In this document: positions 7,543 to 61,690 of the stretch, piece by piece
Layout of the letters: each line of letters starts with the position of its first letter
How positions within the stretch are numbered: the first letter of the stretch is position 1
NCBI GenBank assembly: GCA_902535055.1
Contig: CACASI010000001.1
Location: 53,427-117,426, forward strand
DNA: 64,000 bases
Source of the DNA: an uncultured Candidatus Actinomarina sp.
GTDB lineage: Bacteria > Actinomycetota > Acidimicrobiia > Actinomarinales > Actinomarinaceae
Direction of reading: 5' to 3'
The notes under the pieces: generated by a model
The model's database searches: none
Told to the model about the DNA's origin: nothing
The model's input: the letters and a program-made list of their open reading frames with translations, nothing else
Program-made: the position numbers and the translations under genes

Positions 7543-8448
7543 TTATTTATTAATTATCTTTGATAAAAATGGAATTGTTACAAATATAGAACTGTAAGTA
7601 CCAGAAATAATTCCAATAAATAATGGTAATGCAAAATCAGTTAACGTACCAGAAAGCCCAATTACATTGCCTAAAAATAATATAGACGCAATTGGTACTG
7701 CTGATGTAATTGATGTGTTGATACTACGCATAAGAATTTCATTGAACGTTTTATTCAATGTTTTGATTGATAAATCTGATTCTTTATTCAATCTTTGACT
7801 ATCTCTTAATTTATCAAACAAAATAACCGTGTCGTAAAGTGAATAACCAAGAATAGTTAATAAGGCGATAACTGTAGATGGCGTTATTTCAAAATTTAAC
7901 AATAGATATATCGAAGTACATATAAATAAGTCATGAAGTAATGCAATAAGTGCGACAATTGAAAACCTAAACTGGAATCTTATAGATATCAATAAAACTA
8001 TAAAAGATAGGAAGATAATCAATGCACGAATACCACTGCTCGTTATTTCTTGACCAAATGTTGGTCCCACTCGTTGAAATTCTATCTCGTTAGCATCTAT
8101 ATCAAATTTATTAGCTAAATAGTTAAGAAACTGGGTTTCTTGTTCTTGTGTACCCTCAACAGCTCTGAACAGTATTGAGTTTGAATTTTCAAAAGTTTGA
8201 TATCTTGAGACTTCTAATATCTCATTGGCTAAAATTTCATCAATATCCGATTTCTCATAATCAGAAGAAAATTGATATGTTGTTCCACCAGTAAAATCTA
8301 CAGAAAAATTTAGGTTTAATAATCCAAATGACGCACTGACAAAAACAATTAAAAAGAAGACAACCTCAATTATTAATACATTCTGTAATAATTTTCTTTT
8401 TTCATAAAAGTTAATTGATGTATTACCTAAAAATAAATTTTTAAACAT
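7543..8448 (-). CDS. secF: protein translocase subunit SecF
   Basis: 301 aa polytopic membrane protein adjacent to secD, with a SecD/SecF C-terminal pattern. Confidence 0.85.
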   Translation of the reverse strand: MFKNLFLGNTSINFYEKRKLLQNVLIIEVVFFLIVFVSASFGLLNLNFSVDFTGGTTYQFSSDYEKSDIDEILANEILEVSRYQTFENSNSILFRAVEGTQEQETQFLNYLANKFDIDANEIEFQRVGPTFGQEITSSGIRALIIFLSFIVLLISIRFQFRFSIVALIALLHDLFICTSIYLLLNFEITPSTVIALLTILGYSLYDTVILFDKLRDSQRLNKESDLSIKTLNKTFNEILMRSINTSITSAVPIASILFLGNVIGLSGTLTDFALPLFIGIISGTYSSIFVTIPFLSKIINK

Positions 8449-9886
8449 TTGTGATGTCCTTATTTTTTATTGGATACATCAATCTTGTATTATTTAATTT
8501 AGCGACAATTACTGGTACAGCGTTCCTTGTATATAGCCTTGTAAATAATAGATCAAAAATCGTAGCAATACCCAACGCTAAAGCAAAACCTCTAATTGGA
8601 CCAACAGCAAGTATATAAAGTAAAAAAGCAGCAGAAAGAGATACAAAATCGGCTGTTAATATAGTTTTCCATGAATCGTCAACTGCCTTATTTGCTGCAA
8701 ATTCAAAAGATCTACCAACTTTTATCTCATCTTTTAGTTTTTCGAATGTAACAATATATGAATCTGCAGCTAACCCGATAGAAACTATTATTCCAGCAAT
8801 ACCGGCCAATGTTAGAGTAAACCCTTGAAATTCACCAAGTAATGAAATTACTGAATAAAATAATAAGCCAAACATTGATAGACCAAATACGGAAACAAAT
8901 CCAAGTAAGCGATAGTAAAGAATAATAATGATAGATATAATAATTAATCCGATTAAACCTGCTTGTAGTCCTAGATTCAAAGTATCCTCACCTAAACTAG
9001 CTGAAACTTTTTGGATTGATGATCTTTCAAATGATACTGGTAATGCACCATAACGAAGAATTACAGCTAAATTGTTAGCTGCTTCACCTGTGTCAGTATT
9101 GCCCATTGAAATAGCAGCTGTTCCACCTGTAATACCAATATCTGGATTAACGTCCAAAGCAATTCCTGGTGCTGATACTATCTCTCCGTCAAGAACAATA
9201 GCTAATCTTCTTCTTTCTCCGATTTCACGTGCTAATTTTTTGGTAAGGTTTGTAAATTTATCCTCTGACTCAGGTTTAAAATCAAGAGATACTATCCATT
9301 CATTTTCAGGATAAACAGCAATTGCATCTTCTATATCGCCACCTGTTAATTCAGCTGGACCTAAATGATAAATAACTGGATATCCTTGGTCTATTGAAAG
9401 TAAGTAAGAATCAAAATTAGGATTATCTGATATTGTTATACCTATTTGTTCATCAACCCCAGGTACAGCTATTTTTGTAGGGTTGTCAGGATCATCTTCA
9501 TTTGGAATATACTGAAATGCCGGAGAATAGCCGGTATCAATAGATGAATCAAGGACGGGTCTAAAAGTCAATAATCCTGTTGCACCTAATGCTTCGATAG
9601 CTCTTTCTTGGTCTGTAACACCAGGAAGCTGAACTAATACTGCACTATTACCACTAATAGAAATCTCAGGTTCTTGCACATCTCCAAAAGCCTCAATCCT
9701 AGTTCTCATTATTTCAACAGCTTTCTGTAAAACTTCAGGATCAGTTTCTTCATCTGCAGTAAGTATTACGGATATGCCACCTTGTAAGTCAAGACCGAGT
9801 TTCGGCGAAAGACTGGTTTGTTGAACATAAATAAATAAACCAATAGCAATGAATGGGAGAAAAAGTAATTTAAAATATCGTTTCAT
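8441..9886 (-). CDS. secD: protein translocase subunit SecD
   Basis: 481 aa with an N-terminal TM helix, a large periplasmic domain and a C-terminal 6-TM bundle. It overlaps secF by 8 nt. Confidence 0.85.
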   Translation of the reverse strand: MKRYFKLLFLPFIAIGLFIYVQQTSLSPKLGLDLQGGISVILTADEETDPEVLQKAVEIMRTRIEAFGDVQEPEISISGNSAVLVQLPGVTDQERAIEALGATGLLTFRPVLDSSIDTGYSPAFQYIPNEDDPDNPTKIAVPGVDEQIGITISDNPNFDSYLLSIDQGYPVIYHLGPAELTGGDIEDAIAVYPENEWIVSLDFKPESEDKFTNLTKKLAREIGERRRLAIVLDGEIVSAPGIALDVNPDIGITGGTAAISMGNTDTGEAANNLAVILRYGALPVSFERSSIQKVSASLGEDTLNLGLQAGLIGLIIISIIIILYYRLLGFVSVFGLSMFGLLFYSVISLLGEFQGFTLTLAGIAGIIVSIGLAADSYIVTFEKLKDEIKVGRSFEFAANKAVDDSWKTILTADFVSLSAAFLLYILAVGPIRGFALALGIATIFDLLFTRLYTRNAVPVIVAKLNNTRLMYPIKNKDITNV

Positions 9887-10134
9887 GAAATATTTTTAAT
9901 ATAAGCTTTTTGAATTTTTATTTCACCTTTTTTAAGAACTAAGGTAACTGTCGTATCTTCTATTGATGTTACACGTCCAAAAACGCCACCATCAGTCAAT
10001 ACGTCATCCCCAATTTTTAAATCTTCTATGAATGCAGCATGTTTCTTAGCTCTTCTTCTTTGTGGTAAATACAGAAGAATATAAAAAACTACAAAAACCA
10101 GAATTATTGGTAATAAATTAATAAATTCATCCAT
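9883..10134 (-). CDS. yajC: preprotein translocase subunit YajC
   Basis: 83 aa with a single TM helix and the YajC C-terminal motif (DGGVFGRVTSIEDTTVTL). It sits in the conserved tgt-yajC-secDF position. Confidence 0.8.
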   Translation of the reverse strand: MDEFINLLPIILVFVVFYILLYLPQRRRAKKHAAFIEDLKIGDDVLTDGGVFGRVTSIEDTTVTLVLKKGEIKIQKAYIKNIS

Positions 10135-11203
10135 TTAAGTATTCCTCTTTAAAACTATCAAAACTTGAGTTTAATATACTATCCCTAGCTTGTTGAATAA
10201 TATTTTCAGTTTGAATTATATTATGAACAGTAAGATAAAGCCATGAAGATGTGGTTTCATTGACAAATAAATGTCTTAAATATGCTTTAGAAAAATTTTT
10301 ACAGACATAACAATTGCAATCTTCATCAAGAGGACTTGTATCTTTTTCATATTTATTATTTTTGATGTTTATATATTGATTTTTAATAATGAGTTTTCCA
10401 TGTCTTGCTAAACGTGCAGGCCATACACAGTCAAACATGTCCACACCAGAATCAATTAGATCTATCAATCCAATTGTGTCACCTAAGCCCATAACATAAC
10501 GAGGTTTATCAACTGGAAGTACATTAGATAAAAATTCAACAACAGATTTCCTTTCTTCTCTTGATTCGCCAATAGCTAATCCACCTATTGCATATCCATC
10601 AAAATTTAGATCAATCATAGATTTTGCAGATTGTTCCCTTAGGTTAAGATTTAATCCACCTTGAACAATACCAAATAAACTTTGTAGTGAATTATTGTGT
10701 GTTTCTTTTGCTATTAATGCCCATTTTTTTGTGATCTCAATCGCTTTTTTTTGTTCTTCATCAGGTTTATCAATGTCGATTAAACAATCAAAAATCATTG
10801 CTATATCACTTCCAAGCAAATTCTGAGTTTTTATCGAATCTTGTGGAGTTAGTTTAAAGTACGATCCGTCATATACGTTTTTAAATTCAACCCCATCATC
10901 ATATAATTTTGTTGGTAATGACCATGCTTGAAAGCCTCCTGAATCAGTAAGAATTAATTTATCCCAATTCATGAATTTATGTAAGCCACCATGATCGCTG
11001 ATTATTTTTGGTCCAGGACGCAAATGTAAATGATACGCATTTGCCAATAAAATAGAAGTTTTATTTAAATATTCGTGAGGTGTTGATTTTATAGTTCCTC
11101 TTGTAGCAACAGGCATGAATGTAGGAGTTTCAACTGTATTTCCATTTAAGGAAAGTAGTCCTGCCCTAGCTTTTTTATCTGTTTTGATTATTTCAAATTT
11201 CAT
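10127..11203 (-). CDS. tgt: queuine tRNA-ribosyltransferase
   Basis: 358 aa TIM-barrel protein with the Tgt zinc-binding motif CxCxxC...H (CNCYVCKNF...HL) and catalytic Asp regions. Confidence 0.9.
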   Translation of the reverse strand: MKFEIIKTDKKARAGLLSLNGNTVETPTFMPVATRGTIKSTPHEYLNKTSILLANAYHLHLRPGPKIISDHGGLHKFMNWDKLILTDSGGFQAWSLPTKLYDDGVEFKNVYDGSYFKLTPQDSIKTQNLLGSDIAMIFDCLIDIDKPDEEQKKAIEITKKWALIAKETHNNSLQSLFGIVQGGLNLNLREQSAKSMIDLNFDGYAIGGLAIGESREERKSVVEFLSNVLPVDKPRYVMGLGDTIGLIDLIDSGVDMFDCVWPARLARHGKLIIKNQYINIKNNKYEKDTSPLDEDCNCYVCKNFSKAYLRHLFVNETTSSWLYLTVHNIIQTENIIQQARDSILNSSFDSFKEEYLNG

Positions 11204-12204
11204 TTATTTGTTATTTTAAATAGCACGGCATCACCAAAACTTAAAAATTTTAATTCTTTTTTAAGTGCATAGCTGTATAGATCTTTCCAATTATCTCCAT
11301 AAATTGCATGAACAATAGAAATTAGAGTACTTCTTGGAGCATGAAAATTAGTAATTAAATAGTCTGCAATATTAAATTTAAAATCTTTAGTTATAAATAA
11401 ATCAGTTGAACCCTTTAATTCAGACGTAATATTTACATACTCCAATGCTCTTAACGTTGTAGTCCCAACGCAGTAAATTTTATATCCGTTCTTTTTCTTT
11501 TTAATAATATTTTCATATGTATTTCTTTGAATCTGATAATTTTCTGAATGAATATTAAAATCTTCAACATAATCTGTTGAGATGGGCTTAAAAGTACCAA
11601 GTCCTATATCTAGATTTATAAAATCAATCTCTATACCCTTATCCTTTAATTTTTGGAAAATATCTGATGTAAAGTGTAAGCCAGCTGTAGATGACGCTGT
11701 AGAAAAACCTTTCTTGCTAAAAAAGTTTTTATAGTATTTATATTTATGTTTTTCATCAATGATGTACGGAGGCAAAGGAGTAATTCCAAATTTTTGAATG
11801 ATATCTATTACTGGCGTAGAAAATATTACCTTAAACCTATCTTCTTCATGTGAAACTAATGTTATATTAAAATTCTCAAGTTTGATTTCTTCATTAAGTT
11901 TCTTTTTTCCACTAGTTTTTATAAGGCATAATGCTGTGTCTTCATTTAAAACTTCCAATATAAAAATTTCAAATTTTCCACCTGTTTCAAACTTTCGTGT
12001 TCTGATTCTTGCATCAACTACTTGTGAAGAGTTAAATATCATTAAAGATTTTGAATCAATTATTTTATTTATTTCTGAAAATTTGTAAATTTCCTTTGTT
12101 GAAGCATCAAGTAGCTTTGAATCTTCAGGGTTTTTATACGGTTCTTGAGCTATAGATTCAATAGGTAATTCATAATCTAATTCAGATACTGGTGTTTTAT
12201 TCAC
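11200..12204 (-). CDS. queA: S-adenosylmethionine:tRNA ribosyltransferase-isomerase
   Basis: 334 aa with the QueA N-terminal motif (LDYELPIESIAQEP) and a 4-nt overlap with tgt. Confidence 0.85.
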   Translation of the reverse strand: MNKTPVSELDYELPIESIAQEPYKNPEDSKLLDASTKEIYKFSEINKIIDSKSLMIFNSSQVVDARIRTRKFETGGKFEIFILEVLNEDTALCLIKTSGKKKLNEEIKLENFNITLVSHEEDRFKVIFSTPVIDIIQKFGITPLPPYIIDEKHKYKYYKNFFSKKGFSTASSTAGLHFTSDIFQKLKDKGIEIDFINLDIGLGTFKPISTDYVEDFNIHSENYQIQRNTYENIIKKKKNGYKIYCVGTTTLRALEYVNITSELKGSTDLFITKDFKFNIADYLITNFHAPRSTLISIVHAIYGDNWKDLYSYALKKELKFLSFGDAVLFKITNK

Positions 12205-12558
12205 TTACTTATTTAGTAAGCTAATAAACAAATCATAAGACATAGAGACAACTTCTGGAATACCATCGCTACTGCGTCTTTTATTGCCAGATTGTCTTTT
12301 TAATTTTTTCCAAAATAAGACTGTATTTTTATCTCCAGATTTTTCTAGAGCTTTTTCTAATGATTGATGAATGTTTAAATTTTGTCTTGATTTTGCTTCA
12401 ATAAAATATTCGACTCCATCCACAAATAGTTGTATATCGCCAAGATCATTTGAACCACCCTCAGCAAATCTTTGAGCTTTCATGTTCGAATTTTTGTTTA
12501 ATCTTTTGACTATATTAGTTTCGTAAGTAGTACCCTGTTTTTTAGCTTTATTGACCAC
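12205..12558 (-). CDS. Hjc-like (archaeal-type) Holliday junction resolvase, a small PD-(D/E)XK nuclease
   Basis: 117 aa. The pattern G..YE..IVK.L....KA.R.A.GGSNDLGDI.LF..G..YFIEAKS matches the Hjc core (GxxxERELV...GS..DLVA...KYL.IEVK), with catalytic E, D and ExK positions present. It lies between yebC and queA, where ruvC-ruvA-ruvB normally sit. Confidence 0.5.
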   Translation of the reverse strand: MVNKAKKQGTTYETNIVKRLNKNSNMKAQRFAEGGSNDLGDIQLFVDGVEYFIEAKSRQNLNIHQSLEKALEKSGDKNTVLFWKKLKRQSGNKRRSSDGIPEVVSMSYDLFISLLNK

Positions 12559-12577
12559 AAACTAATTGTAGCTAAAT

Positions 12578-13321
12578 TTATTGTGTTATTGCTTCTTCTA
12601 GGAGTTTGTTATCTATGTCAAAATTTGCATAAACATTTTGTACATCGTCCAAATCTTCAAGTGCTTCAATTAATTTAGATAACTTGTTAAATCCATTTAA
12701 ATCTAAATTTATTGAAGTAGATGGTAAATACGCAATTTCAGAATTAACTAAATTGAATTCTGAAGATCTAAATAGTTCGTCAATTTTTTGAAATTCAGAT
12801 GGATTAAATTCTAAGGTTACACCATTTTCATTTTCTTGAATATCAACACAGTTATTATCAATCGCTATATCTATAATATCTTCCTTATATTCATCAAATT
12901 GGAAAATTGCTTTACGTGCGAATAAGTAATTGACACTTCCTGGAGATCCAGTACTTCCTTCGTATTTATTAAATGTAGCTTTAACGTCAGAAGACGTTCT
13001 GTTCTTGTTGTCTGTTAAACATTCAACCAATATCGCAACACCACTAGGACCATATCCTTCATAGGTAATTTCATCAAATACACCTATTGATGAATCACCG
13101 TTTATTCTTTTTAACGCGTTTTCAATATTCGAATTAGGAACAGAATTTGATTTTGCTTTACTGATAGCCTGGTATAACGATGCATTGTTATTTGGATCAG
13201 CACCTCCAGTTTTGCCAGCAACCTCAATTGCTCTTATAAGTTTTGCAAAAAGTTTGCCTCTTTTGGCATCATTTGCACCTTTTTTGCGTTTTATCGTTGA
13301 CCATTTAGAGTGACCTGACAT
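12578..13321 (-). CDS. yebC: YebC/PmpR family DNA-binding transcriptional regulator
   Basis: 247 aa starting [25 protein letters not shown], the canonical YebC N-terminus. Confidence 0.9.
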   Translation of the reverse strand: MSGHSKWSTIKRKKGANDAKRGKLFAKLIRAIEVAGKTGGADPNNNASLYQAISKAKSNSVPNSNIENALKRINGDSSIGVFDEITYEGYGPSGVAILVECLTDNKNRTSSDVKATFNKYEGSTGSPGSVNYLFARKAIFQFDEYKEDIIDIAIDNNCVDIQENENGVTLEFNPSEFQKIDELFRSSEFNLVNSEIAYLPSTSINLDLNGFNKLSKLIEALEDLDDVQNVYANFDIDNKLLEEAITQ

Positions 13322-13889
13322 TTAAACCGTCCTTTAGAAAATTTTTAAGCCATTCTAGATAAATAATATCATTTGAAAGTTCTGGATGAAATGATAACCC
13401 AACAATATTATTTTCATGTATACCAACAACTTCTTCATCTATTAATGCAATAGGAGTGACTGTGTTAGCGTAAGATATTATTTTTGGTGCTCTAATAAAA
13501 CAATACATTTCCTTATTACCATTAAAATCAACCAAGCCCTCAAAAGATTCATTTTGACGTCCATATGCATTTCGTTCTACAACTGTGTTTAAACAAGAAA
13601 TTGATGATTGACCATCAATAACATCATTTGCTAGCAGAATTAATCCAGCACATGTTCCCAAAGTTGGCATTCCTTCATTTATTTTAATTTTGATGGATTC
13701 GAACAAATCATCATTCTTTTGAATTTTCATCATTGTTGTTGATTCGCCACCGGGGAGAATTAATGAATCTATGCTATCAAGATCTGAAACAGATTTTATT
13801 AATTGATATTCTTTATCAATAAGTTCTAATGATTTTATGTGATCAAAAAACGATCCTTGGAGAGCTAATACTCCAGTTTTCATTACCAA
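13305..13889 (-). CDS. pdxT: pyridoxal 5'-phosphate synthase glutaminase subunit PdxT
   Basis: 194 aa class I glutamine amidotransferase with catalytic Cys (GTCAG) and a C-terminal His/Glu region. It is adjacent to pdxS. Confidence 0.9.
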
Positions 13890-14767
13890 CCTCTTTTGGC
13901 TAGTTTCTCCGTCTCATCTAAATCGTCAATATTTAGTCCAACCATAGGTTCACCTAGTTCTTTAGATACTTCAACAAGTTTTTCTGGATTGTCAAAGTTT
14001 GTAGTTGCAATCACAATAGCTTCAGCACGTTCTTTAGGGTCACCACTTTTAAAGATTCCTGAACCAACAAATACACCATCACAACCAAGCTGCATCATTA
14101 AAGCTGCATCCGCAGGTGTTGCTATTCCGCCTGCAGCAAAATTTACAACAGGTAATTTTTTTGACTCGTGTATGTCTTTAACAACTTCAAAAGGTGCTCT
14201 TATTTCTTTAGCTATTGACATAAGACTATTTACATCAGCAGTAATAATTTTATTTATACCATCGGTCATACTTCTCATGTGTCTTACAGCTTCAATAACA
14301 TTACCAGTTCCAGCTTCACCTTTAGTTCTAATCATTGCAGCACCTTCACCAATTCTTCTACATGCTTCACCTATATCAGTAGCACCGTTGACAAATGGAG
14401 TTTTTATATCATGTTTATAAATATGATTTTTATCATCAGCAGGTGTTAAAACTTCACTTTCGTCAATAAAATCTATACCAAGTGACTCAAGCATTTGTGC
14501 TTCAACAAAATGACCTATTCTTGCTTTAGCCATTACAGGAATACTTACGGAATCAATAACTTCTTGGATAGTTTCAACAGATGACATCCTAGCTACACCA
14601 CCTTCAGCACGAATATCAGCAGGTATACGTTCTAAGGCCATAACAGCTACAGCCCCAGACTTTTCAGCTATCACAGCTTGTTCAGCGTTGACCACATCCA
14701 TGATTACGCCGCCTTTTAACATTTCAGCTAAACCTTTTTTAATTTTAAAAGTCGATTCAATTTTCAT
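13883..14767 (-). CDS. pdxS: pyridoxal 5'-phosphate synthase lyase subunit PdxS
   Basis: 294 aa highly conserved (beta/alpha)8 protein ([34 protein letters not shown]). Confidence 0.95.
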
Positions 14768-23246: not shown

Positions 23247-25226
23247 TTAGCCAAAAGAAGGATTTTTGGTGTTGGGAACAAGTGAAATCCAAACTTTTCC
23301 CTTAGGTACATACAATATGTTGTTATTGCTATCAACTATATGAAATGGATCTAAATTAGAACCTCGTTTCCATTTAGCATCTAGTAATTTGCCACCATGT
23401 AATATAATCGCACGTCCTTCACCAACTGTTTTGACAGAAGGTAATTGAAGTGGATGTATATATGGTTCACAAAATAATGCAATGACAGTATCTGTTGAAA
23501 TTTGGCCAGTATTTCCATTTTGATCAGCCCAATAATGAACGTTATCTGTTTTTTGATTTTTGTATGCGTCATAATAACTTCTAATGTATTTAGAACCATT
23601 CCAAGTCCAAGTAGTCGATGTATATCCTGAAAATGTAAGAGTTAAGTAATTGTTACTACTCCAGTTAGATAATGAAGGATCTCCCCAAGGAAATAATGGT
23701 TGAGGATTGCTTGTCTTTTTATACCCTCGGCTAATAGATGTTGATTTTAATTTAGATGTATCAGCATATAAATTGTGTGGAGCATTTCTTGAAGAAATTC
23801 TAAAATAATCAGGTCTTCTATCTGTGATAACAGGAACTCCCATATCAACTATTTCTGGTATTAAACCTCCGGTGGCACCACTAGCAACTAAAACACCTCC
23901 CAATGGTCTAAGAACCGTAGGATCTGTTGGTCTTGCTGAACGAATTGGCCCATGATATACAGTATCACTTTGGTAAAAAATATTAATAAATCTTGTCATT
24001 CCACCCTCTACTAATACTTCGACAACAGCATCTGCATTTTGAGGACCTGATTGAGGCCTCGCATTCACATTATTATCATTTTTAATTCCTATAACTATTG
24101 AATTATTCGCACCTGATGGCATGGGTAATCCGTTTACAGGAGAATTAACACCTGTTGTATAATTTTGTGTCGGTACTGGACCAAGTGATACATAGGTCTT
24201 TTCCTTAGTTAAAGTCCAATTCTGATTTAAATATGCATCTAACTCAGCTTGTGAATTAACTTGTGCTATTTGACCATATCTGAATACAAAAACAGGGTAA
24301 AAACAAGGGTCAGGAACCCAGATCTGAGATTCATTAACATAACCATTTATGCATGGTGCATTAGGGTTATAATTTCTTAAATCAACAGTTAACACACCAT
24401 TGCTGCTTGTTAACGATAAAGGTTCATTTGTAATAATTTCTACATAAGATTCCTCACCTTTTTCTAATGATGATTGAGTTTTAGGACCTAAGATACCATC
24501 AACTACTAAACCAGCTAACTTTTGAAATTCTTTTATTGCATTTTTTGTTAAATTGCCGTTAATGCCATCAATTACTCCATTGTATAAATCTAAATCAGAT
24601 AAAAGTTGTTGTGCTATCTCTATATCTTTTGAATAATTGTTTTCATTAATAACATCAATTTGTGCACCGCCTATGTTTAAGAACGATTCCTCTCCTTTTT
24701 CAAGTGCAGCTTTAGTATTCGGACCTAAAATACCATCAACTACTAAACCGGCTAACCTTTGAAATTCTTTTATTGCATTTATGGTTAATGAGTTATTTTT
24801 ACCATCAATTTCAGCATTATATAAACCAAGGTTAAACAGCTGAGATTGTGCATCTTCAATATTATTTACGACTATAGGAATTGTAGTTGAAGTGCTTGTA
24901 GTCGTTAAAGGAATAGTAGTTGTAGTTGATATTGTAGAAGTTGTTGTATTAGAAATAATTTCAATATCAGAAATATTTATATTTTGATCATTAATAACTT
25001 CTAAATTATCGTCATTTGAAAATTGAGTTATACCAAATAATGACAAAGAAATGATAAAAATAGAACCAATATATTTAAATAAATTCGACTTGTTGTTTTC
25101 TGTAGCCTCTACAACTCCTTCAATATCTTCAATAATTGAGGTTTTGTCTTTATTATTTAATGGCTTTAAAGATGTTCTTTGTAAATTTCTTTTACTATAT
25201 AAATCTTTGTGTAATTTTTTATGCAT
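23247..25226 (-). CDS. membrane-anchored protein with two peptidoglycan-binding (PG_binding_1) repeats and a C-terminal DUF3048-like domain
   Basis: 659 aa with an N-terminal TM helix and a Thr/Ser-rich linker. It has two ~45 aa repeats (LGLYN..IDG..G..T..AIKEFQ.LAGLVVDGILGP.T...L). The C-terminal 380 aa are paralogous to the next gene (NARPQSG...EGGMTRF...GPIRSARPTDP...APHNLYADT). Confidence 0.6.
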   Translation of the reverse strand: MHKKLHKDLYSKRNLQRTSLKPLNNKDKTSIIEDIEGVVEATENNKSNLFKYIGSIFIISLSLFGITQFSNDDNLEVINDQNINISDIEIISNTTTSTISTTTTIPLTTTSTSTTIPIVVNNIEDAQSQLFNLGLYNAEIDGKNNSLTINAIKEFQRLAGLVVDGILGPNTKAALEKGEESFLNIGGAQIDVINENNYSKDIEIAQQLLSDLDLYNGVIDGINGNLTKNAIKEFQKLAGLVVDGILGPKTQSSLEKGEESYVEIITNEPLSLTSSNGVLTVDLRNYNPNAPCINGYVNESQIWVPDPCFYPVFVFRYGQIAQVNSQAELDAYLNQNWTLTKEKTYVSLGPVPTQNYTTGVNSPVNGLPMPSGANNSIVIGIKNDNNVNARPQSGPQNADAVVEVLVEGGMTRFINIFYQSDTVYHGPIRSARPTDPTVLRPLGGVLVASGATGGLIPEIVDMGVPVITDRRPDYFRISSRNAPHNLYADTSKLKSTSISRGYKKTSNPQPLFPWGDPSLSNWSSNNYLTLTFSGYTSTTWTWNGSKYIRSYYDAYKNQKTDNVHYWADQNGNTGQISTDTVIALFCEPYIHPLQLPSVKTVGEGRAIILHGGKLLDAKWKRGSNLDPFHIVDSNNNILYVPKGKVWISLVPNTKNPSFG

Positions 25227-25280
25227 TAAAAACCCTGTAAGTACATATTAATGATTAAATTGTAAATTAATTCTTAATAA

Positions 25281-26399
25281 TTAATTTTCAGACCAAATAA
25301 TTTCGCCATTGAGAGGCAATATATGAATCCATTGTTTGCTAGGTGGAACTTCTATTTTTTCCTGATCGTTATCTAGGAATTCAAATGGTTCTGTAATATC
25401 ATTTCTTCTCCAGGTGCCTTCAATATATTTACCATTGTGAAAAATTGTTACTGGTCCAACTCCTACCGTAAGTACACTTGGTAAAGTTGTGACTTCATCG
25501 TTGTATAGAGGACCTTGTATTACTACAACTGTTGGTATTTTTAATATATCTGAATATCCATCTCTTGTAATAAAATTGTGGGCTACAGCTTCTTCGTCAG
25601 GAGAATAACCATCAACTATGAACCTACTGTACTGATCATTGTCCATCTTCCAGATAACAGTAGTAAAATCACTATATTTTATTGTTACTCTATTTGCACC
25701 TGTTAACCAATTTGATTGGTCATTACCAAAATTATATAAAGGGTTTACATCTTGATTAAAAAGAAATCCCCTGGTGTCAATGTACTCTCTCACCAATTCA
25801 GTGTCCGCGTACAAATTATGAGGTGCTTTTCTATTTGCTATCCGAAACATAGTTGGAGCAGAAACTTCTTCAAGTACTGGAACACCAAGTTCTCTAATAG
25901 CTGGTATCAATCCTGCGGTAGCACCTGATACAACAAGAATTCCCCCATAAGGTCTAACCAAATTTGGGTCAGTAGGACGAGCAGAACGTATTGGTCCAAC
26001 GTAAGTACTTGTCTTATCCATATAAAAAGCTAAAAATCTTGTCATACCTCCTTCAACAAGAATTTCCATAACAGTATCCGCTTCTTGTAGTCCAGACTGT
26101 GGTCTAGCATTCAAATTATTATCGACTTTAAATGCAATAACTCTTCTTGGTCTTTTCAGCCAAATTTCTGGTGATAATTCAAGACCTGTAAATGGTGACA
26201 TTTTTTCTTTGTCATAGGTATAACTCTCTACAATATTTGTATCATCTTGTGCATTAGAAGCAGTTGTAGTTGTTTCATTATTATTTGAAGGAACTTCAGC
26301 TTCTAAAGTAGTGGTAGTTTCGACAACATCCGATGACTCATTTGAAGATGAACACATAATAAGGGTTAATACTAGGAAAACTAGTCCGAGTCTTTTCAT
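25281..26399 (-). CDS. DUF3048-like secreted lipoprotein, paralog of the C-terminal domain of the preceding gene
   Basis: 372 aa with a lipoprotein signal (LTLIMCSSS) and a Thr-rich linker. It shares the motif string NARPQSG / LVEGGMTRF / GPIRSARPTDP / SGATxGLIP / APHNLYADT with 23247..25226. Confidence 0.6.
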   Translation of the reverse strand: MKRLGLVFLVLTLIMCSSSNESSDVVETTTTLEAEVPSNNNETTTTASNAQDDTNIVESYTYDKEKMSPFTGLELSPEIWLKRPRRVIAFKVDNNLNARPQSGLQEADTVMEILVEGGMTRFLAFYMDKTSTYVGPIRSARPTDPNLVRPYGGILVVSGATAGLIPAIRELGVPVLEEVSAPTMFRIANRKAPHNLYADTELVREYIDTRGFLFNQDVNPLYNFGNDQSNWLTGANRVTIKYSDFTTVIWKMDNDQYSRFIVDGYSPDEEAVAHNFITRDGYSDILKIPTVVVIQGPLYNDEVTTLPSVLTVGVGPVTIFHNGKYIEGTWRRNDITEPFEFLDNDQEKIEVPPSKQWIHILPLNGEIIWSEN

Positions 26400-43454: not shown

Positions 43455-45479
43455 TTAGTCAATGAGACCAGTAGCTGATTTGATCTTAAGTACCCAATTA
43501 TGAGCATCCGAACCAAAATCTATAGTATTTCCACCAACAGTACTAAAGTTCGTAGTACCCGAAATTTGACCTACTGTAATAATAAAATCATTGGAATCAA
43601 TAACAATATCTTGCGCCTTATCATATGTATCCATGCCTGAACCGCCACCAAATGTTTTTGACCATTGAAAAGTACCAGAGGAATCATGCTTTACAATGTA
43701 AGCATCATTATTACTCCCAGATGCTACATCCTGCCCTCCTAAATTATAATTACCCCCAATTTGACCGACACTATAGACATTTCCATCATCGTCAATAGCT
43801 ACAGCTGTTCCAAACGCTTGACCAGCTGCTCCATTATCACGAGCAAATCTTTTAACCCATTGAAATGCTAAAGAGGAGTTAAGTTTAAGTAGATATATAT
43901 CCTTACCAGATGAGGTTATATTGCCACCTCCAAAATTTACTGTATTTTGAAATGTGCCAGTAGCGTAAATATTTCCAGAGGAATCAACAGATATTCCCTT
44001 TGCCTTTTGTGTAGTATCGATATTCGACGTATAGGTACTTTGAGTTGAGTTATAAGTATCAATTTTATGAATAAATAAATCGTTGGAATTCGCTGCAGTA
44101 TAAGTGTTATTTCCAAATTTAACAGTACCTGAAAAGCTTCCTGTCAAGTATGTAATATTATTCGAGTCAATTGCCAAGGCTCTTGCATCTGCACTTCCAG
44201 TATTCTCTGTTCTCCAAACAGACTGCCAAATTCCAGAGGAATTAAGTCTTATTAAGAAAACATCATAGTCATTCGATGTATAATTCACTACACCACCACC
44301 ATCACCACTATCGAAGTTAACAGTGCCACGAAAAGTACCGAGCATAATTGCATTGTCATTGCTATCAACAACTACATCTCTCCCAAGGTCGTTTCCAGTA
44401 CTTCCACCATATGACTTAACCCATTGAAAAGTTCCAGATGAATTAAGTTTGAGAATAAAAGCATCAAAACTGCCATTTGATGTTACATTTCCTCCACCAA
44501 AATCAACTGTATTCTGATAGTATCCAGCAACATAGATATTACCTGAGGAATCAAGCGCTATTTTTCTACCCCTGTCACGACCTGTACCTCCAGCGGTATA
44601 AACCCATTGGACCACTCCAGAGGAATTAAGTTTTACAACAAAAATATCTTGCGTAGTGCCTGAAGTAACACTGGCCCCAAACACATTTGTACCTGAGGAA
44701 GTACCGGTTATATAAATATTATCTGAGGAGTCAACAGCAACTCCCGCATTATCAGTTTCAATTCCACTGCCACCGAACGTTACTAGAAAACCAGAACTGG
44801 AACCTCCTGATCTGCCTTGACCACCTCCACCTCCACCTGAACTACCATCTCCACCGGAACTATTAGTTGATATACAGGGATCAGATTGAGGAATAGTAAA
44901 TGTTTGGCTCTGAGAGGAATTCCCTGCATCATCGAAAGCGATTACATATATAAGTTGATCAGCACAAGCCATATCATATTTTGGAGTTACTAGTAATCGA
45001 GTGTCAGAAATGGTTACATACGTTGATAAAGCACCATTGACATAAACCTCATAAGAGACAACCCCGACATTATCAGTAACTGATGGAATATTGAGGTTAA
45101 ATAGAGAACCAATCTCTGAAGCATAGGGTGAGGAATCAACATCCCATACTGGAGATACTGTATCAAGACTTAATGGACTAGTACTTGATGTTGGCTGAAG
45201 AGTCGTATTTAGAGAAGATAAATATGAACTCTCTCCGAGTAAAAGCTTTGAAAATGTTTCGTCACCAACCATTCCATCAACAACAAGTCCTGCCTTTTCT
45301 TGAAATGTTTTTATAGCTTCTTGGGTGTTTTTATCATTAATGCCTGTTGTAAAATTCAGATAACCCAAATCTATAAGTTTTTCCTGAATATAAGTTGTAT
45401 AAGGATCTTTTTCCTGAGGATGTGAAATATTAGCTAATGGCAATATTGAAATAAGAGCGGTAATTAAAATTTTTTCCAC
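43455..45479 (-). CDS. cell-surface protein with an N-terminal peptidoglycan-binding domain and six SBBP-type beta-propeller repeats
   Basis: 674 aa with a signal peptide and a PG_binding_1 repeat (LIDLGYLN...AIKTFQEKAGLVVDGMVGDETF). It has a Gly-rich linker (SSGGDGSSGGGGGGQG). Six repeats follow, of the form SSGTFQWVK..GG...D.G..V.VDSSGN.Y..G.F.GTVNFGGG. Confidence 0.6.
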   Translation of the reverse strand: MEKILITALISILPLANISHPQEKDPYTTYIQEKLIDLGYLNFTTGINDKNTQEAIKTFQEKAGLVVDGMVGDETFSKLLLGESSYLSSLNTTLQPTSSTSPLSLDTVSPVWDVDSSPYASEIGSLFNLNIPSVTDNVGVVSYEVYVNGALSTYVTISDTRLLVTPKYDMACADQLIYVIAFDDAGNSSQSQTFTIPQSDPCISTNSSGGDGSSGGGGGGQGRSGGSSSGFLVTFGGSGIETDNAGVAVDSSDNIYITGTSSGTNVFGASVTSGTTQDIFVVKLNSSGVVQWVYTAGGTGRDRGRKIALDSSGNIYVAGYYQNTVDFGGGNVTSNGSFDAFILKLNSSGTFQWVKSYGGSTGNDLGRDVVVDSNDNAIMLGTFRGTVNFDSGDGGGVVNYTSNDYDVFLIRLNSSGIWQSVWRTENTGSADARALAIDSNNITYLTGSFSGTVKFGNNTYTAANSNDLFIHKIDTYNSTQSTYTSNIDTTQKAKGISVDSSGNIYATGTFQNTVNFGGGNITSSGKDIYLLKLNSSLAFQWVKRFARDNGAAGQAFGTAVAIDDDGNVYSVGQIGGNYNLGGQDVASGSNNDAYIVKHDSSGTFQWSKTFGGGSGMDTYDKAQDIVIDSNDFIITVGQISGTTNFSTVGGNTIDFGSDAHNWVLKIKSATGLID

Positions 45480-48092: not shown

Positions 48093-48680
48093 ATGATTAA
48101 AAAATATTTATTTATACCCTTAGTTTTGCTTATTTCATTATGTGGTGGTGAAGCTGATAATGCTGAGGTTGTAGAGACAACTGAGAATACTGTAAATACT
48201 AATGTTGAGCAACCAACTGTAGATCTATTAGTTTCTGTTCAAGATAATGATTTAAATACTGTTAATCAACATATTGCTTATGGATCAGATCTAAACGTAC
48301 AAGATGGAACGTTTTCAAATACTCCCCTAAATTTTGCAGGTATTTATGGATTAACAGAAATTGCTGAAGTTCTTGTTGATGCCGGCGCAGATCTAAACCT
48401 AGTAAACGCTGACAACTTTACTCCACTATGTAATGCAGCAGCTTGGGGGCATACAGATGTGGTCACTATACTTCTTGATGCAGGTGCTGATATATCAGCA
48501 AAGTGTTTTGAAACACAAATTGGACTTTCCGTAGCTGTAGCAATAGCTATCAGTGCTCCATATTCAGATTATATAAAAGCACTGTATGTCGATCATGGAG
48601 AAAAATATAATATTCCTTATGACGAAGCAAAAATTATTGCAGGTAGAGAAAAAGTTACAGAGCTGCTCAGTAGTAGGTAA
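48093..48680 (+). CDS. ankyrin-repeat lipoprotein
   Basis: 195 aa with a lipoprotein signal (LISLCGG) and at least three ANK repeats (TPLNFAGIYGLTEIAEVLVDAGADLNL, TPLCNAAAWGHTDVVTILLDAGADIS). Confidence 0.75.
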   Translation: MIKKYLFIPLVLLISLCGGEADNAEVVETTENTVNTNVEQPTVDLLVSVQDNDLNTVNQHIAYGSDLNVQDGTFSNTPLNFAGIYGLTEIAEVLVDAGADLNLVNADNFTPLCNAAAWGHTDVVTILLDAGADISAKCFETQIGLSVAVAIAISAPYSDYIKALYVDHGEKYNIPYDEAKIIAGREKVTELLSSR

Positions 48681-48706: not shown

Positions 48707-49855
48707 TTATTTTGATAATAAAATTGCCATTATCTGATCTTCAGGAAGGTCTAAAAATTCATAAAATTCATTAAGGTAAGTCTTGTAATCTTTTTCAAAT
48801 TGTATTTCAAATGATTTTTCAAACCCAAATTCTTCATACAAAGAATAAATATCCAAGATTTTATCTTCTCCGTGTTCGTTTACAAGATAAGCTATAAACC
48901 AAGCTCCAATTTCATAAGCAATTTGTTTATCGACAGGTTCAGGATTTCCACTAAATGTTATATTATTTAGTTTTACACCAGATTCTTTAAAAATCTCTAA
49001 TCTACTTTTATTACCATATCTGTCTTTTTCACACAGTAATGCACAATACATTTGATCCTTAAACCAACTCATGTCATTGATTGTCCTTGCATAATCTATG
49101 TAACTGAAATAAACAGCCGCACCTTCGTTCCACCATGGAACATCGTCTTCAGGATTATCTCCCGAAAATCTACCATTGAGCATTCTTTGCCCGTCGTAAC
49201 TATCAGTTGAATAATGCGAAGTTTGAAATATGTGAAACATTTCATGTAATGTAACATATCCCATCGATGATGCATGTTGAGGCAAGTCGTGTGTCCTGCT
49301 AATGAATAAATTGTATCCATCTCTTTGAGGTATGCTGCTTATTGCAGAACCAGCAACACCACCATTAGGCTCAACAAATAAACCATTACGTTCATATTCT
49401 TCCCTCGAATCTTCATTATCACCACATCTACTACTGTCATAACCGTCCTGTATAAATAGTTTTTTGTGCTCTTCTTCTAAAAATTCACAATAAACAGGTT
49501 CTAGTGCCAGTGCAGATTCTGGATTGTTTTTGTCAAGTTGTACAAGGTAAATAGGATATAAATTTTCAATAACTACATTCGGTTGACTAAAGTATAGTTC
49601 TTCCGATATTGCAACCCACTCTTTTAACATTTCTTGATGGTCATTTGAAACTGATTCTGCAATAAAATATATAATTTTACGATTATCAAGAGAAGAGGTT
49701 GTAGAATTTTCTTCATCATTAGGCGTTACAGAAGTAGACTCATTTGAAATTTCTTCATCCGGTAAAATTGTTTCATCAGATATATTAGAACTATCAGAAT
49801 CCAAACTACAAAATGTGACTGTTAAAGAAAAGATGAGAATAAAATAATTTTTCAT
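48707..49855 (-). CDS. secreted HExxH zinc metallopeptidase-like lipoprotein, paralog of 40973..42124
   Basis: 382 aa with a signal and Cys (TFCSLD) and an acidic Ser/Thr linker. It has HEMFH and a downstream WWNEGAAV motif that aligns with HEVTH...WLNEGIAH of the paralog. Confidence 0.55.
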   Translation of the reverse strand: MKNYFILIFSLTVTFCSLDSDSSNISDETILPDEEISNESTSVTPNDEENSTTSSLDNRKIIYFIAESVSNDHQEMLKEWVAISEELYFSQPNVVIENLYPIYLVQLDKNNPESALALEPVYCEFLEEEHKKLFIQDGYDSSRCGDNEDSREEYERNGLFVEPNGGVAGSAISSIPQRDGYNLFISRTHDLPQHASSMGYVTLHEMFHIFQTSHYSTDSYDGQRMLNGRFSGDNPEDDVPWWNEGAAVYFSYIDYARTINDMSWFKDQMYCALLCEKDRYGNKSRLEIFKESGVKLNNITFSGNPEPVDKQIAYEIGAWFIAYLVNEHGEDKILDIYSLYEEFGFEKSFEIQFEKDYKTYLNEFYEFLDLPEDQIMAILLSK

Positions 49856-51459: not shown

Positions 51460-52635
51460 TTAGGAGTTTTTTCCTAGCCAATAATTCCATTTAAGAGCAA
51501 CGTTACTCCATACAAATGAATCTTTTCCAACTTCTGTAATTGATTCCCTCTGAGACACTGCCTCATTTATGGTTTCAATAATTTCATAGCCATATTCATC
51601 CCAGGCTTTTTTCATTGTTTGAAAATCAAAAAGGCCCTTCTCTTCGAATATTCTAAAGCTTGAAAGAGATGGCAATAAAGCACCTCTATTCAAAGTATTA
51701 GTTGGTTTTCCGTATTTATCTACAACCATAGTTTCTTTAAAGGATTCAGAAATTCTTAAACTTCCAAACCTTCCACCATTTTCGTTATAGATCTGTTCTG
51801 CCGTGCACAACATGTAATCACGTATAGCCAATATATTTTTTAATTTTGTTTTTGTGACTTGGAATTTTATTTTTCCTTCATCCGTAGCAAACATATTAAC
51901 TAATGAAGACTTAGATGAATATGGTCTAGTCAACAATTTGTCAGTGCTTCCAGATGGAAACATGTCACTGTTAGTTGCCCATAGATATCCAAGTAAATCT
52001 CTACTGTCTATAGCAAATAAAGTTTTATCATCATCTTTATATTCATTTTGCCTAAATTGAATACTGTCTTTCCATGTTTCTGGAAGTTTAGATATGATAT
52101 CACTAAATTCATTTCTCATATGAAGCAATGTTTCTTTAGTAACACTTACAGATGAATTTTGACCTTCAGCAATAGCTGCAATGGATTCTCTGTCTTTTAT
52201 TCCACCAAAAAATCGAACAATAACTTGTTGATTAGACAACTCTTGTTCTGGAGATTTTCCAGCATCATTCATTGCATCACAGACTTCTCTGATAGCTCTA
52301 TATGTGTGTGCACCATTTAATACACCATTAAGATCATCTGGTTCTTCACTCAGTTCGATAGTAATTGGTTTTGTGGTGTCTTTATCAAGCAATACACTTA
52401 AACAATTAATGGTTATACCTTGGTTTTTATACCTAAATAATCCATCATTGCTTTCTAATGATTCCTTAATCCCTTTAGTAACTGCATTTGTCATTTTCTG
52501 ATGTCTTGGATTAGCATCAGTTGATATTTCTGGTGCTCTCCATAAATCAGAAACATTAACAATAGCAGTATGTTCTCTTTTTTTAGGATCATTTGAGTCA
52601 GGATGACTCTTTATAGTTTGAATATATAATTTCAT
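51460..52635 (-). CDS. orphan hypothetical protein carried by the islet
   Basis: About 391 aa from the internal ATG (the track ORF starts at an upstream GTG, 52668). There is no signal peptide, P-loop or tyrosine/serine-recombinase motif. It has a weak DGQHR/ParB-like segment (VLNGAHTYRAI). The upstream region contains the ATGGTACACAA repeat. Confidence 0.4.
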   Translation of the reverse strand: MKLYIQTIKSHPDSNDPKKREHTAIVNVSDLWRAPEISTDANPRHQKMTNAVTKGIKESLESNDGLFRYKNQGITINCLSVLLDKDTTKPITIELSEEPDDLNGVLNGAHTYRAIREVCDAMNDAGKSPEQELSNQQVIVRFFGGIKDRESIAAIAEGQNSSVSVTKETLLHMRNEFSDIISKLPETWKDSIQFRQNEYKDDDKTLFAIDSRDLLGYLWATNSDMFPSGSTDKLLTRPYSSKSSLVNMFATDEGKIKFQVTKTKLKNILAIRDYMLCTAEQIYNENGGRFGSLRISESFKETMVVDKYGKPTNTLNRGALLPSLSSFRIFEEKGLFDFQTMKKAWDEYGYEIIETINEAVSQRESITEVGKDSFVWSNVALKWNYWLGKNS

Positions 52636-52849
52636 ATATATCTCTCTTTCTGTGGACTTTCGCCGCACTATTTTTTTAATGTGACATTTCTGCGCACATA
52701 GTGATTTTTACAAATTGCAAAAATCTTAATTATTATACCATAAATTTAAAGAAAAATCGAAAATGGTACACAAACGACACACAAATTAGATAATAAAAAT
52801 TTTAAATAAAAAGATTAGACATAAAAGCCTATGTTTTTTGATTATTTTG

Positions 52850-55131: not shown

Positions 55132-55147
55132 TGGTAACCTTTCATTG

Positions 55148-56979: not shown

Positions 56980-56995
56980 TCGAACAAATGTGCTA
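56980..56995. promoter_or_regulatory. putative LexA (Cheo-type) SOS box shared by lexA and the divergent LysM gene
   Basis: TTCGAACAAATGTGCT matches GAAC-N4-GTTC with one mismatch (GTGC). It lies in the 61-bp divergent intergenic region upstream of lexA. Confidence 0.55.
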
Positions 56996-57005
56996 ATATT
57001 ATTTT

Positions 57006-57593
57006 ATGGTATCTGACAAACAAAAAAATATTTTGAATTTTATTAACATTTTTGTTGAAAAAAACGGTTATGCACCTTCAGTAAGGGAAATTTGTACGGG
57101 TGTTGGTCTAAAATCGACAAGTACAGTCCAATATCATATAGAAAAATTAATTAATTCGGGTTATCTACAAAAAAACTACAAAAAATCTAGAGCTTTGACC
57201 GTAAATTCACAAGTACCTAAAAATAAAATACCAATTCTTGGTGAAATAGCTGCTGGTTCGTTGCTTACGGCAGAAGAAAACGTTATTGGATCTGTAAATT
57301 ATCCACATTCAGAGGAAACAACAGAACTATTTGCATTATCAGTTTCTGGTGATTCCATGAAAGATGAAGGAATACATGAAAAAGATTTAGTTATAATTGA
57401 CAAATCTTTACAAATTAAAAATGGTGATATTGGTGCTTTTTTGATTAATAACACTGAAGGTACGATAAAATTTTTAAGAAATATTGAGGGTAAAAACTAC
57501 TTAGTTCCTGCAAATAAAAATTATAAAAAAATTAAAGTAAATGAGAATATTCAGCCTATAGGTAAAGTTGTATCTCTAATTAGAGATATGTAA
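57006..57593 (+). CDS. lexA: LexA repressor
   Basis: 195 aa with an N-terminal winged HTH, an Ala-Gly cleavage site (GEIAAGS) and an S24 Ser/Lys dyad (VSGDSMKDEGI...IKFLR). Confidence 0.9.
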   Translation: MVSDKQKNILNFINIFVEKNGYAPSVREICTGVGLKSTSTVQYHIEKLINSGYLQKNYKKSRALTVNSQVPKNKIPILGEIAAGSLLTAEENVIGSVNYPHSEETTELFALSVSGDSMKDEGIHEKDLVIIDKSLQIKNGDIGAFLINNTEGTIKFLRNIEGKNYLVPANKNYKKIKVNENIQPIGKVVSLIRDM

Positions 57594-60504: not shown

Positions 60505-60540
60505 ATTACAAATTATAAATTTATATTTAAGAAAACTATG

Positions 60541-61614
60541 TTATTTTTTGTTTTTAGGCTCTTCTGATATTTCTTCTTCTACTTCAGCAGTCTCATCACT
60601 TTCAATTGATTCTTCTTCATCAGATTCAATCATTCCAACTGCTTTGTATACTGCAGTTTCTAACTGTAATGCAAGATCAGGATTTTCTCGTAGAAAACGC
60701 TTGGAATTCTCTTTACCTTGTCCAAGCTGAACTTCGTCGTATGTAAACCAAGCACCAGCTTTTCTAGCTATGCCATGTTCTACAGCAACATCAAGTAAGC
60801 TACCTTCACGAGAAATACCTTGACCAAACATAATATCAAATTCAGCTTCTCTAAAAGGTGGAGCAACTTTATTCTTAACTATTTTTGCTCTTACACGGTT
60901 ACCTATCTGTTCAGGACCAACTTTTAGTGTTTCAATTCTTCGTACGTCGATTCTTACCGAAGAATAAAACTTAAGTGCTCTTCCACCGCTTGTTGTTTCA
61001 GGAGATCCCCACATGACACCAATTTTTTCACGAATCTGATTAATAAATATAACAGTTGTTCCTGATTTATTGATTGATCCTGTTAATTTACGCAATGCTT
61101 GTGACATCAATCTAGCTTGTAAACCTACATGCGTATCGCCCATTTCTCCTTCAATCTCGGCTTTAGGAACAAGGGCTGCAACTGAATCAATTACAACTAG
61201 GTCGACCCCACCAGACTGTATCAACATATCGGCAATTTCTAATGCTTGTTCTCCAGTGTCAGGTTGCGATACTAATAACTCGTCAACATCTACTCCCAAT
61301 GCCCTAGCGTAAACAGGGTCGAGAGCATGCTCAGCATCAATGAATGCTGCAACTCCTCCAGCTTTTTGGGCTTCTGCAGCAACATGTAAAGAAAGTGTTG
61401 TTTTACCGGATGCCTCAGGTCCGTATATTTCTATAACTCTACCTTTTGGGACCCCACCTATCCCTAACGCAAGATCTATAGATAATGCACCTGTAGATAT
61501 TGCAGGTATTTTTTTGATATTATCGGCACCAAGTTTCATTAATGAACCCTCGCCGAATTGTTTCTCGATTTGCTCAAAAACTGTATCTAGTTTTTTTGCC
61601 CTGTCTTTATCCAT
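60541..61614 (-). CDS. recA: recombinase RecA
   Basis: 357 aa, highly conserved ([29 protein letters not shown]). Confidence 0.95.
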
Positions 61615-61674
61615 TTTTTCTCCTTTTTAACAATAATAAATATATATTAAAACATCTTTGTATGACAATTTTAC

Positions 61675-61690
61675 TAGAACAAATGTTCTA
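61675..61690. promoter_or_regulatory. LexA (Cheo-type) SOS box upstream of recA
   Basis: TAGAACAAATGTTCTA is a perfect GAAC-N4-GTTC palindrome about 60 nt upstream of the recA start. It overlaps the cinA stop codon. Confidence 0.7.

Follow-up and report, generated by a model that had tools for sequence, protein, structure and literature searches.

The window, by which we mean the whole 64-kb stretch of DNA that was analysed, has a G+C content of 31.5%, and it is most closely matched by single-cell and metagenome genomes of Candidatus Actinomarina (Actinomarinales, Acidimicrobiia). The Actinomarinales abound in the surface waters of the ocean, and few free-living cells are smaller. According to Pfam matches, one run of genes on the minus strand reads pdxS, pdxT, yebC, hjcL, queA, tgt, yajC, secD, secF and relA/spoT, and our concern is with the short gene hjcL, which stands where many bacteria would carry genes for the resolution of recombination junctions. 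The features of this region are as follows.

13305..14767, minus strand: pdxT and pdxS (Pfam), upstream of yebC, syntenic with other Acidimicrobiia by tblastn
12578..13321, minus strand: yebC (TACO1/YebC family; Pfam PF01709 and PF20772), directly upstream of hjcL
12205..12558, minus strand: hjcL, open reading frame for a predicted 117-aa Hjc-like PD-(D/E)XK nuclease, with a GTG start and a TAA stop
12520..12522, minus strand: codon for E13, the motif I glutamate in helix 1, matching E12 of Sso Hjc and E9 of Pfu Hjc
12436..12438, minus strand: codon for D41, the motif II aspartate at the start of strand 2, aligned with the aspartate of the Hjc PD
12391..12399, minus strand: codons for E54-A55-K56, the motif III ExK in strand 3, aligned with the EVK/EMK of Hjc
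11200..12204, minus strand: queA (Pfam PF02547, E 8e-86), directly downstream of hjcL
7543..11203, minus strand: tgt, yajC, secD and secF (Pfam), the same-strand cluster continued beyond queA

The genes are closely packed. An earlier note on this DNA had rightly described a 117-aa gene between yebC and queA, but the 20-nt gap it reported after yebC is in fact one of 19 nt (12559..12577); at the other end no nucleotide separates the TAA stop of hjcL from the GTG start of queA at 12204, and queA and tgt overlap by 4 nt. A search for terminator-like sites on the minus strand from pdxS to secD found none, the promoter and terminator scan being otherwise uninformative, and hjcL is probably co-transcribed with its neighbours. 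The protein contains the string QGTTYETNIVKRL...AEGGSNDLGDI...YFIEAKS, so that the Hjc-core motif quoted in that note is indeed present in the frame at 12205..12558. That hjcL is a real gene and not a chance reading frame follows from its 174 close homologues (68-97% identity), from its presence in all 41 of the species loci described below and from its low dN/dS.

Elsewhere in the window, two adjacent DUF3048 proteins, one of them with peptidoglycan-binding domains (23247-26399), and a 674-aa protein combining an SBBP beta-propeller with PG_binding (43455-45479) are probably cell-envelope proteins. The segment 48000-56300 may be a flexible island in an otherwise housekeeping region: it holds an ankyrin-repeat protein (48093-48680), a protein with an AIPR (abortive infection) domain (51460-52668) and two reading frames, at 48707-49855 and 55040-56212, that have no Pfam match.

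Synteny of the yebC-queA interval

When the YebC of the window was compared with one genome per GTDB species, 80 loci were obtained. The order pdxT-yebC-hjcL-queA-tgt-yajC-secD is found in every one of the 41 Actinomarinales species loci that extend past yebC, and these hjcL-bearing species span YebC identities of 58-98%. Across the same loci the identity of HjcL lies between 73 and 99%, while that of QueA falls to about 50%. In two metagenome-assembled genomes hjcL is split by a frameshift, one from isolate LRMED-050 (L009; 10695-11049) and one on a 'pilon'-polished contig (L045; 10001-17959) in which yebC, secD, secF and relA are split as well; both cases are most likely assembly errors and not pseudogenes.

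The upstream block is common to other Acidimicrobiia and consists of thrS, an unknown gene, a CDP-alcohol phosphatidyltransferase, an acyltransferase, a glycosyltransferase, pdxS, pdxT and yebC. What comes after it differs. One acidimicrobial locus (L066) continues from pdxT-yebC into ruvC-ruvA-ruvB, a second (L048) into ruvC-ruvA up to the end of the contig, and in Euzebya (L071) the order ruvC-ruvA-ruvB-yajC begins about 1.8 kb after yebC. The proposal that hjcL occupies the position of ruvC-ruvA-ruvB is thus borne out by the related Acidimicrobiia and Euzebya, which carry ruvCAB there. In other bacteria yebC is the usual neighbour of ruvC, and yebC and queA belong to the genes that, in bacteria at large, most often lie near those for RuvABC (Zhang et al. 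2012, PMC3403352), so that hjcL sits exactly between two of the usual companions of the genes it appears to have displaced.

RuvAB had also been described as missing from the locus, and this agrees with our searches: tblastn with the E. coli proteins (E ≤ 1e-4) detected none of RuvA, RuvB and RuvC in the 64-kb window, nor within 10 kb of yebC in the 41 Actinomarinales loci. These searches covered the window and 41 loci of about 20 kb each, a minor fraction of a genome that measures about 1 Mb. Three loci from outside the Actinomarinales, two labelled Acidimicrobiia (among L046, L050 and L052) and one labelled uncultured bacterium, retain pdxS-pdxT-yebC; ruvCAB was sought within 10 kb of yebC in these and not found, and there was no hjcL homologue downstream of yebC in the stored sequence (past about 10740 in L046 and L052 and about 7250 in L050). 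Since yebC can thus stand without ruvCAB nearby, ruvCAB can move, and its absence from this slot is not by itself proof of absence from the whole genome.

Family, fold and phage relatives of HjcL

An exhaustive HMMER search against 1.8 billion representatives returned 247 clusters, a small family in which most proteins have about 115-135 aa. In a broad-family alignment of 81 diverse sequences (A2), six positions are invariant in all 81 (G9, T10, E33, D38, D41 and E54), E13 is kept in 79, position 56 is lysine in 66 and arginine in the other 15, and R30, K73, W83, K84 and R95 are nearly invariant. Motif I of Hjc, which Aravind 2000 (quoted in PMC8805305) gives as G/P-x(3-4)-E in helix 1, is represented by G9 (81/81) and E13 (79/81), with residues 4-21 helical in the structural model, and the motif II aspartate and motif III ExK are both present, with strands predicted at 42-46 and 49-57. 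Two basic residues, R10 and R25, are required for the activity of Pfu Hjc (PMC10956419, PMC10140301); the counterpart of R25 in HjcL is R30, kept in 79 of 81 members, and position 14, the counterpart of R10, is threonine or serine. For the Pfu Hjc dimer residues V24, V35, F68 and F72 we saw no obvious equivalents in HjcL, and the residues of the Hjc dimer interface do not appear to be conserved.

Relationship to Hjc emerges most clearly when profiles are compared. Alone, HjcL shows only weak similarity to Hjc, with Sulfolobus (Sso) Hjc retrieved from the PDB at E 0.04; with the A2 profile the top seven matches were Hjc or Hje chains (best E 0.0028), among them the Thermus phage resolvase Hjc_15-6 at E 0.014. 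HHalign of A2 against a reference alignment (A4) of seven archaeal-virus resolvases, all of which pass Pfam Hjc PF01870, gave a probability of 93.4% and E 2.6e-7 over 86 columns, aligning E13, D41, E54 and K56 with the E/D/E/K of Hjc and the FWKK strand with FWKK or YFKK. An AlphaFold model built from the 81 diverse sequences has a pLDDT of 92.7 and a pTM of 0.85, and replaced a run with close Actinomarinales sequences only (pLDDT 64); its topology is a helix, three strands, a helix, two strands and a helix. Foldseek against the PDB ranks the Pfu, Sso and Afu Hjc and Hje structures first (probability 0.98-1.0; 1gef at E 7e-4 and probability 1.0), and Hjc/Hje account for 20 of the top 24 chains. 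These best solved matches have TM-scores of only 0.45-0.5; the restriction enzymes R.SwaI and HincII are also among the matches, and predicted viral structures fit better (TM 0.65-0.7), several of them named Holliday junction resolvase, HJC or RecU.

Domain libraries are less accommodating. HjcL matches Pfam PDDEXK_15 (PF24608) at 24.2 bits (E 3.5e-5), below the gathering cut-off of 27 bits and over profile positions 1-74 of 164, so that only the N-terminal half is covered; just 14 of the 81 broad-family members match that profile at E ≤ 0.01, the best score being the 24.2 bits of HjcL itself. There is no match between HjcL and Pfam Hjc (PF01870; gathering cut-off 21.1 bits) at E ≤ 10, and weak matches below the cut-off come from three of 31 close members (best E 0.083) and two of the 81 (best E 0.0044). 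NCBIfam gave no match. The full length of the protein (residues 1-116) is matched by the phage profile PHROG 244, at E 1.6e-11 and 45.8 bits; this profile is labelled 'RusA-like Holliday junction resolvase', in which we take 'RusA-like' to be a name only. Other families were considered and set aside. Three PDB sequence searches returned no RecU chain at E ≤ 10, the RecU label occurring only on low-ranked viral fold matches; YraN/UPF0102 is absent from the Pfam families matched by the 31 close or 81 broad-family members; and no RuvC match occurs anywhere in the window, HjcL having the PD-(D/E)XK fold instead.

On the evidence of sequence profiles and the model, HjcL is an Hjc-type PD-(D/E)XK nuclease with an intact E...D...ExK site. 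The 'archaeal Hjc-like' of the earlier note is accordingly right as to fold, likeness and catalytic site and wrong as to 'archaeal', the nearest relatives being phage proteins at 34-53% identity; in the same way, profile comparison upholds homology to Hjc (at the 93.4% given by HHalign), while the Pfam Hjc cut-off is missed and RecU is not the family. Because its nearest relatives are phage proteins and the cut-offs of both Pfam Hjc and PDDEXK_15 are missed, the sequence comparisons suggest that 'phage-derived sister family of Hjc' is a better description of HjcL than 'archaeal Hjc'.

Those relatives, the nearest outside the Actinomarinales, are phage genes, and every non-Actinomarinales relative with readable context sits on a phage-like contig. 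Three such contigs (L001-L003) carry HNH, a sigma-70 region 4 protein, AAA_25, VanY and a gene for a 1591-aa product, and a fourth (L004) has AAA_25 and a run of small reading frames lacking Pfam matches. The closest outgroup (P0129, 53% identity) follows ERF, SSB and WhiB on a contig of 61% G+C, and another relative (P0318) lies 1.4 kb from a weak Rad52/Rad22-like match, with SSB, Mom and MT-A70 on the same contig. A viral scan was run with a 12-sequence alignment as query, the 81-sequence A2 being too divergent, and in IMG/VR it found 78 viral contigs (L088-L165) encoding relatives at 34-49% identity; 70 of these are below 42% G+C (median 37%), a Rad52-like gene lies near the relative on five more of them, and a replication initiator is a near neighbour in two of the three that were examined. 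Those IMG/VR contigs whose relatives come nearest to the Actinomarina gene (45-49% identity) have a Rad52-like gene too. No queuosine genes were seen near the phage relatives in the contexts read. Cultured phages of Arthrobacter and Microbacterium have homologues that bear the annotation Holliday junction resolvase, those of Arthrobacter phages being 31-34% identical to one family member (P0139) over 97% of its length, and some IMG records already give the label 'Holliday junction resolvase' to HjcL orthologues.

Some members of the family depart from the common architecture. Four representative clusters (P0240, P0255, P0265 and P0269) align with the family profile first over 1-44, then over 78-117 and last over 48-75, the unit of strand-3 ExK and helix 2 having moved to the C-terminus to give a segment-permuted PD-(D/E)XK nuclease. 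Three others (P0172, P0188 and P0215) have an N-terminal extension of about 115 aa, and on phage contig L001 (4399-5249) a Sigma70_r4_2 gene overlaps the start of the nuclease gene, which together suggest that a DNA-binding domain is fused to the nuclease in some phages.

Origin and role of HjcL

Median pairwise dN/dS is 0.10 for hjcL, 0.17 for yebC, 0.22 for tgt and 0.31 for queA, where dS is near saturation and the ranking is more reliable than the absolute values; hjcL is under strong purifying selection. The window also encodes RecA, by which the organism can form recombination junctions that call for resolution, and the SOS repressor LexA, as listed here.

60541..61614, minus strand: recA (Pfam RecA, E 3e-139)
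61677..61688: LexA-box-like palindrome GAACAAATGTTC, just upstream of recA (pattern search)
57006..57593, plus strand: lexA, SOS repressor (Pfam LexA_DNA_bind and Peptidase_S24)
56982..56993: LexA-box-like palindrome GAACAAATGTGC, just upstream of lexA (pattern search)

With recA and lexA present, recombination junctions will be made and need resolving; CinA and an SRAP protein are encoded in the window beside them. Frequent homologous recombination has been inferred within Actinomarina species, and population genomics suggests that it keeps Actinomarinales species cohesive (PMC7771536). A LexA box (GAAC-N4-GTTC) was sought near the yebC-hjcL operon as a link to the SOS response and none was found, the boxes being at recA and lexA; LexA-box-like sites in the window are no more numerous than chance would give. 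The order cinA-recA-miaB-miaA-dapF occupies 59131-62896, with 36 nt between recA and miaB. In other actinobacteria recX lies between recA and miaB; here that gap holds no reading frame of at least 100 aa and has no room for one.

We consider it likely that HjcL is a Holliday junction resolvase of Hjc-like kind that was domesticated from a phage and took over the ancestral slot of ruvCAB. This reading draws directly on the fold, the conserved catalytic residues, the homology to Hjc, the phage relatives, the order-wide replacement in synteny and the purifying selection on the gene. Outside the Actinomarinales the family is phage-borne, carried in replication and recombination modules, and an ancestor of the order would have captured a single phage copy into the slot between yebC and queA-tgt-yajC-secDF. 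HjcL would be a small metal-dependent PD-(D/E)XK endonuclease and, by analogy with Hjc (PMC10956419, PMC8805305), a homodimer of it may bind the four-way junctions made by RecA according to their structure and not their sequence, with E13, D41 and E54 holding Mg2+ and K56 contacting the scissile phosphate. Two features are peculiar to the family: the basic hairpin of residues 84-99 (KKLKR..NKRR), which would grip the DNA arms, and the pair E33 and D38 of the AEGGxxDxGD loop, which may provide a second metal site. Two symmetric nicks would then leave ligatable duplexes, and it is by this proposed action that HjcL probably does the job of RuvC. Dimer formation, junction specificity, cellular role and the manner in which branch migration is provided are what we infer for HjcL. 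Against this reading stand the weak sequence similarity to Hjc, the low TM-scores and the restriction enzymes among the fold matches, the threonine or serine at position 14, the seemingly unconserved dimer interface and the failure to find a LexA box near the operon; ruvABC might also lie elsewhere in the genome. A bacterial Hjc-like protein of the UPF0102 family bound DNA and did not cut it (PMC10140301), which is a warning against reading function from fold alone. Our search of the literature, including the supplements of the Actinomarinales genome paper, found nothing that links Actinomarina with ruv, Hjc or DNA repair for hjcL.

How much of RuvABC was lost from the genome can be read in two ways. 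It is conceivable, and we put it forward tentatively, that the Actinomarinales lost the whole of RuvABC including the motor, so that junctions made by RecA are resolved by one 117-aa nuclease captured from a phage. Somewhat unlikely is the replacement of RuvC alone, as by RecU in the Firmicutes, with RuvAB elsewhere in the chromosome and HjcL cutting the junctions that RuvAB has migrated. RuvAB is kept in more than 98% of bacteria, those without it being mostly parasites, and RecU genes are always distant from ruvAB (PMC3403352). In three loci (L046, L050 and L052) yebC is uncoupled from ruvCAB, so that ruv genes can evidently move. However, in the closest outgroups that have the genes, ruvC-ruvA-ruvB form one block after yebC (in L066, and in L048 as far as the contig end), and it is all three that have gone from there in the Actinomarinales; nor did any of RuvABC appear in the window or the 41 loci, small as these are beside the chromosome. 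A different task for the nuclease altogether, such as fork or flap processing, damage nicking or a restriction-like activity, with the gene having merely landed in the gap left by a ruvCAB deletion, we regard as improbable. The PD-(D/E)XK fold has many functions, R.SwaI and HincII are among the fold matches, a few family members weakly match Mrr_cat, Vsr or a pPIWI-associated REase, and the UPF0102 protein offers the example of an Hjc-like protein without resolvase activity (PMC10140301). Yet every top match of HjcL in sequence or fold is to Hjc/Hje or a phage resolvase, its phage relatives accompany single-strand annealing recombinases and SSB, and the position of hjcL between the two commonest neighbours of RuvABC would become a coincidence. 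As for restriction, no methyltransferase or specificity-subunit partner was found among the Pfam-annotated neighbours, and membership of a restriction or defence module, which, coupled with canonical ruvCAB elsewhere, the earlier note had named as an outcome that would tell against its view, is rejected on the housekeeping surroundings of the gene and its order-wide synteny.

The remaining explanations have far less to recommend them. Since the stop of hjcL abuts the start of queA in all species, and some PD-(D/E)XK proteins are RNA endonucleases, HjcL might be supposed to have RNA as its substrate, perhaps tRNA, and to work with the queuosine genes queA and tgt beside it; but the cluster queA-tgt-yajC-secDF is widely conserved and often found after ruvAB with no link in function between them (PMC3403352), the phage relatives have no queuosine genes nearby, and HjcL has no match to an RNA-nuclease family, all of which makes this very improbable. 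The least probable of all is that hjcL is a prophage remnant, or a selfish or defence gene without a housekeeping role. That every relative outside the order is phage-borne might encourage such a view, but hjcL is a lone gene with no other phage genes around it, its position is identical in 41 species across the full span of YebC identities, and its dN/dS of 0.10 is below that of its housekeeping neighbours; the prophage remnant was rejected on these grounds.

Should HjcL be the resolvase that we favour, it would represent a third lineage-wide replacement of RuvC, after RecU and alongside the RusA bypass, and a resolvase from a phage would have become a core gene in the same place as the genes it ousted. 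HjcL would also offer a simple one-protein candidate for the completion of recombination in a streamlined bacterium, and a likely function for several hundred phage proteins that lie outside the coverage of Pfam. If RuvABC has been lost entirely, the consequences would be larger: homologous recombination inside a bacterium would end in the archaeal style, independently of RuvAB, and genome streamlining in an abundant free-living ocean order would have proceeded by a one-for-three gene swap.

Relation to known resolvases

The archaeal Hjc and Hje proteins (PF01870; 1gef, 1hh1, 4tkd, 2wcw and 1ob8) are in the same size class as HjcL, at about 120-140 aa, and the catalytic residues have nearly the same numbers in both, E12/D42/E55/K57 in Sso Hjc and E13/D41/E54/K56 in HjcL. 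They have in common the G-x3-E of motif I and the strand-1 arginine, R25 in Pfu Hjc and R30 in HjcL, and the FWKK strand is shared with the Hjc proteins of rudiviruses. HjcL differs in having two further invariant acidic residues, E33 and D38, in having the AEGGxxDxGD loop in place of the SGS loop of Hjc, and in a motif II that reads GD where Hjc has PD; it lacks the arginine that follows the motif I glutamate of Hjc, it has the basic hairpin 84-99 and a different C-terminal part, and its host is a bacterium.

Among resolvases of bacteria and their viruses there are partial parallels. Hjc_15-6 from the Thermus thermophilus phage Tth15-6 (PDB 7bgs/7bnx), for which cleavage of X-shaped DNA has been shown (PMC8805305), is an archaeal-type resolvase encoded by a phage of a bacterium, a combination that is proposed for the origin of HjcL as well, and its motif has the three parts E-(S)D-EVK. 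However, it belongs to another subfamily, is longer (163 aa), has an SD motif, is a weak fold match (rank 46) and has not been domesticated by a cell. RecU of the Firmicutes and Mollicutes is a PD-(D/E)XK resolvase that has taken the place of RuvC across a whole lineage (PMC3403352), as is proposed here for HjcL. RecU is larger, at about 200 aa, and has a stalk; it cooperates with RuvAB, although its gene lies at a distance from ruvAB. RusA, from the cryptic prophage DLP12 of E. coli, is phage-derived and can stand in for RuvC in a bacterial cell. It is discussed in PMC10956419, and differs from HjcL in that its fold is unrelated, it is normally silent and it has not become fixed as a core gene.

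The closest counterparts are the 'Holliday junction resolvase' genes of actinophages and marine phages represented by PHROG 244, which are related to PDDEXK_15. They have the same invariant residues and 34-53% identity to HjcL over the full length, and by sequence HjcL belongs to this PHROG 244-type family. What separates them is circumstance: the phage genes lie on phage genomes beside recombinases, SSB or replication initiators, whereas hjcL is fixed in the chromosome among housekeeping genes.
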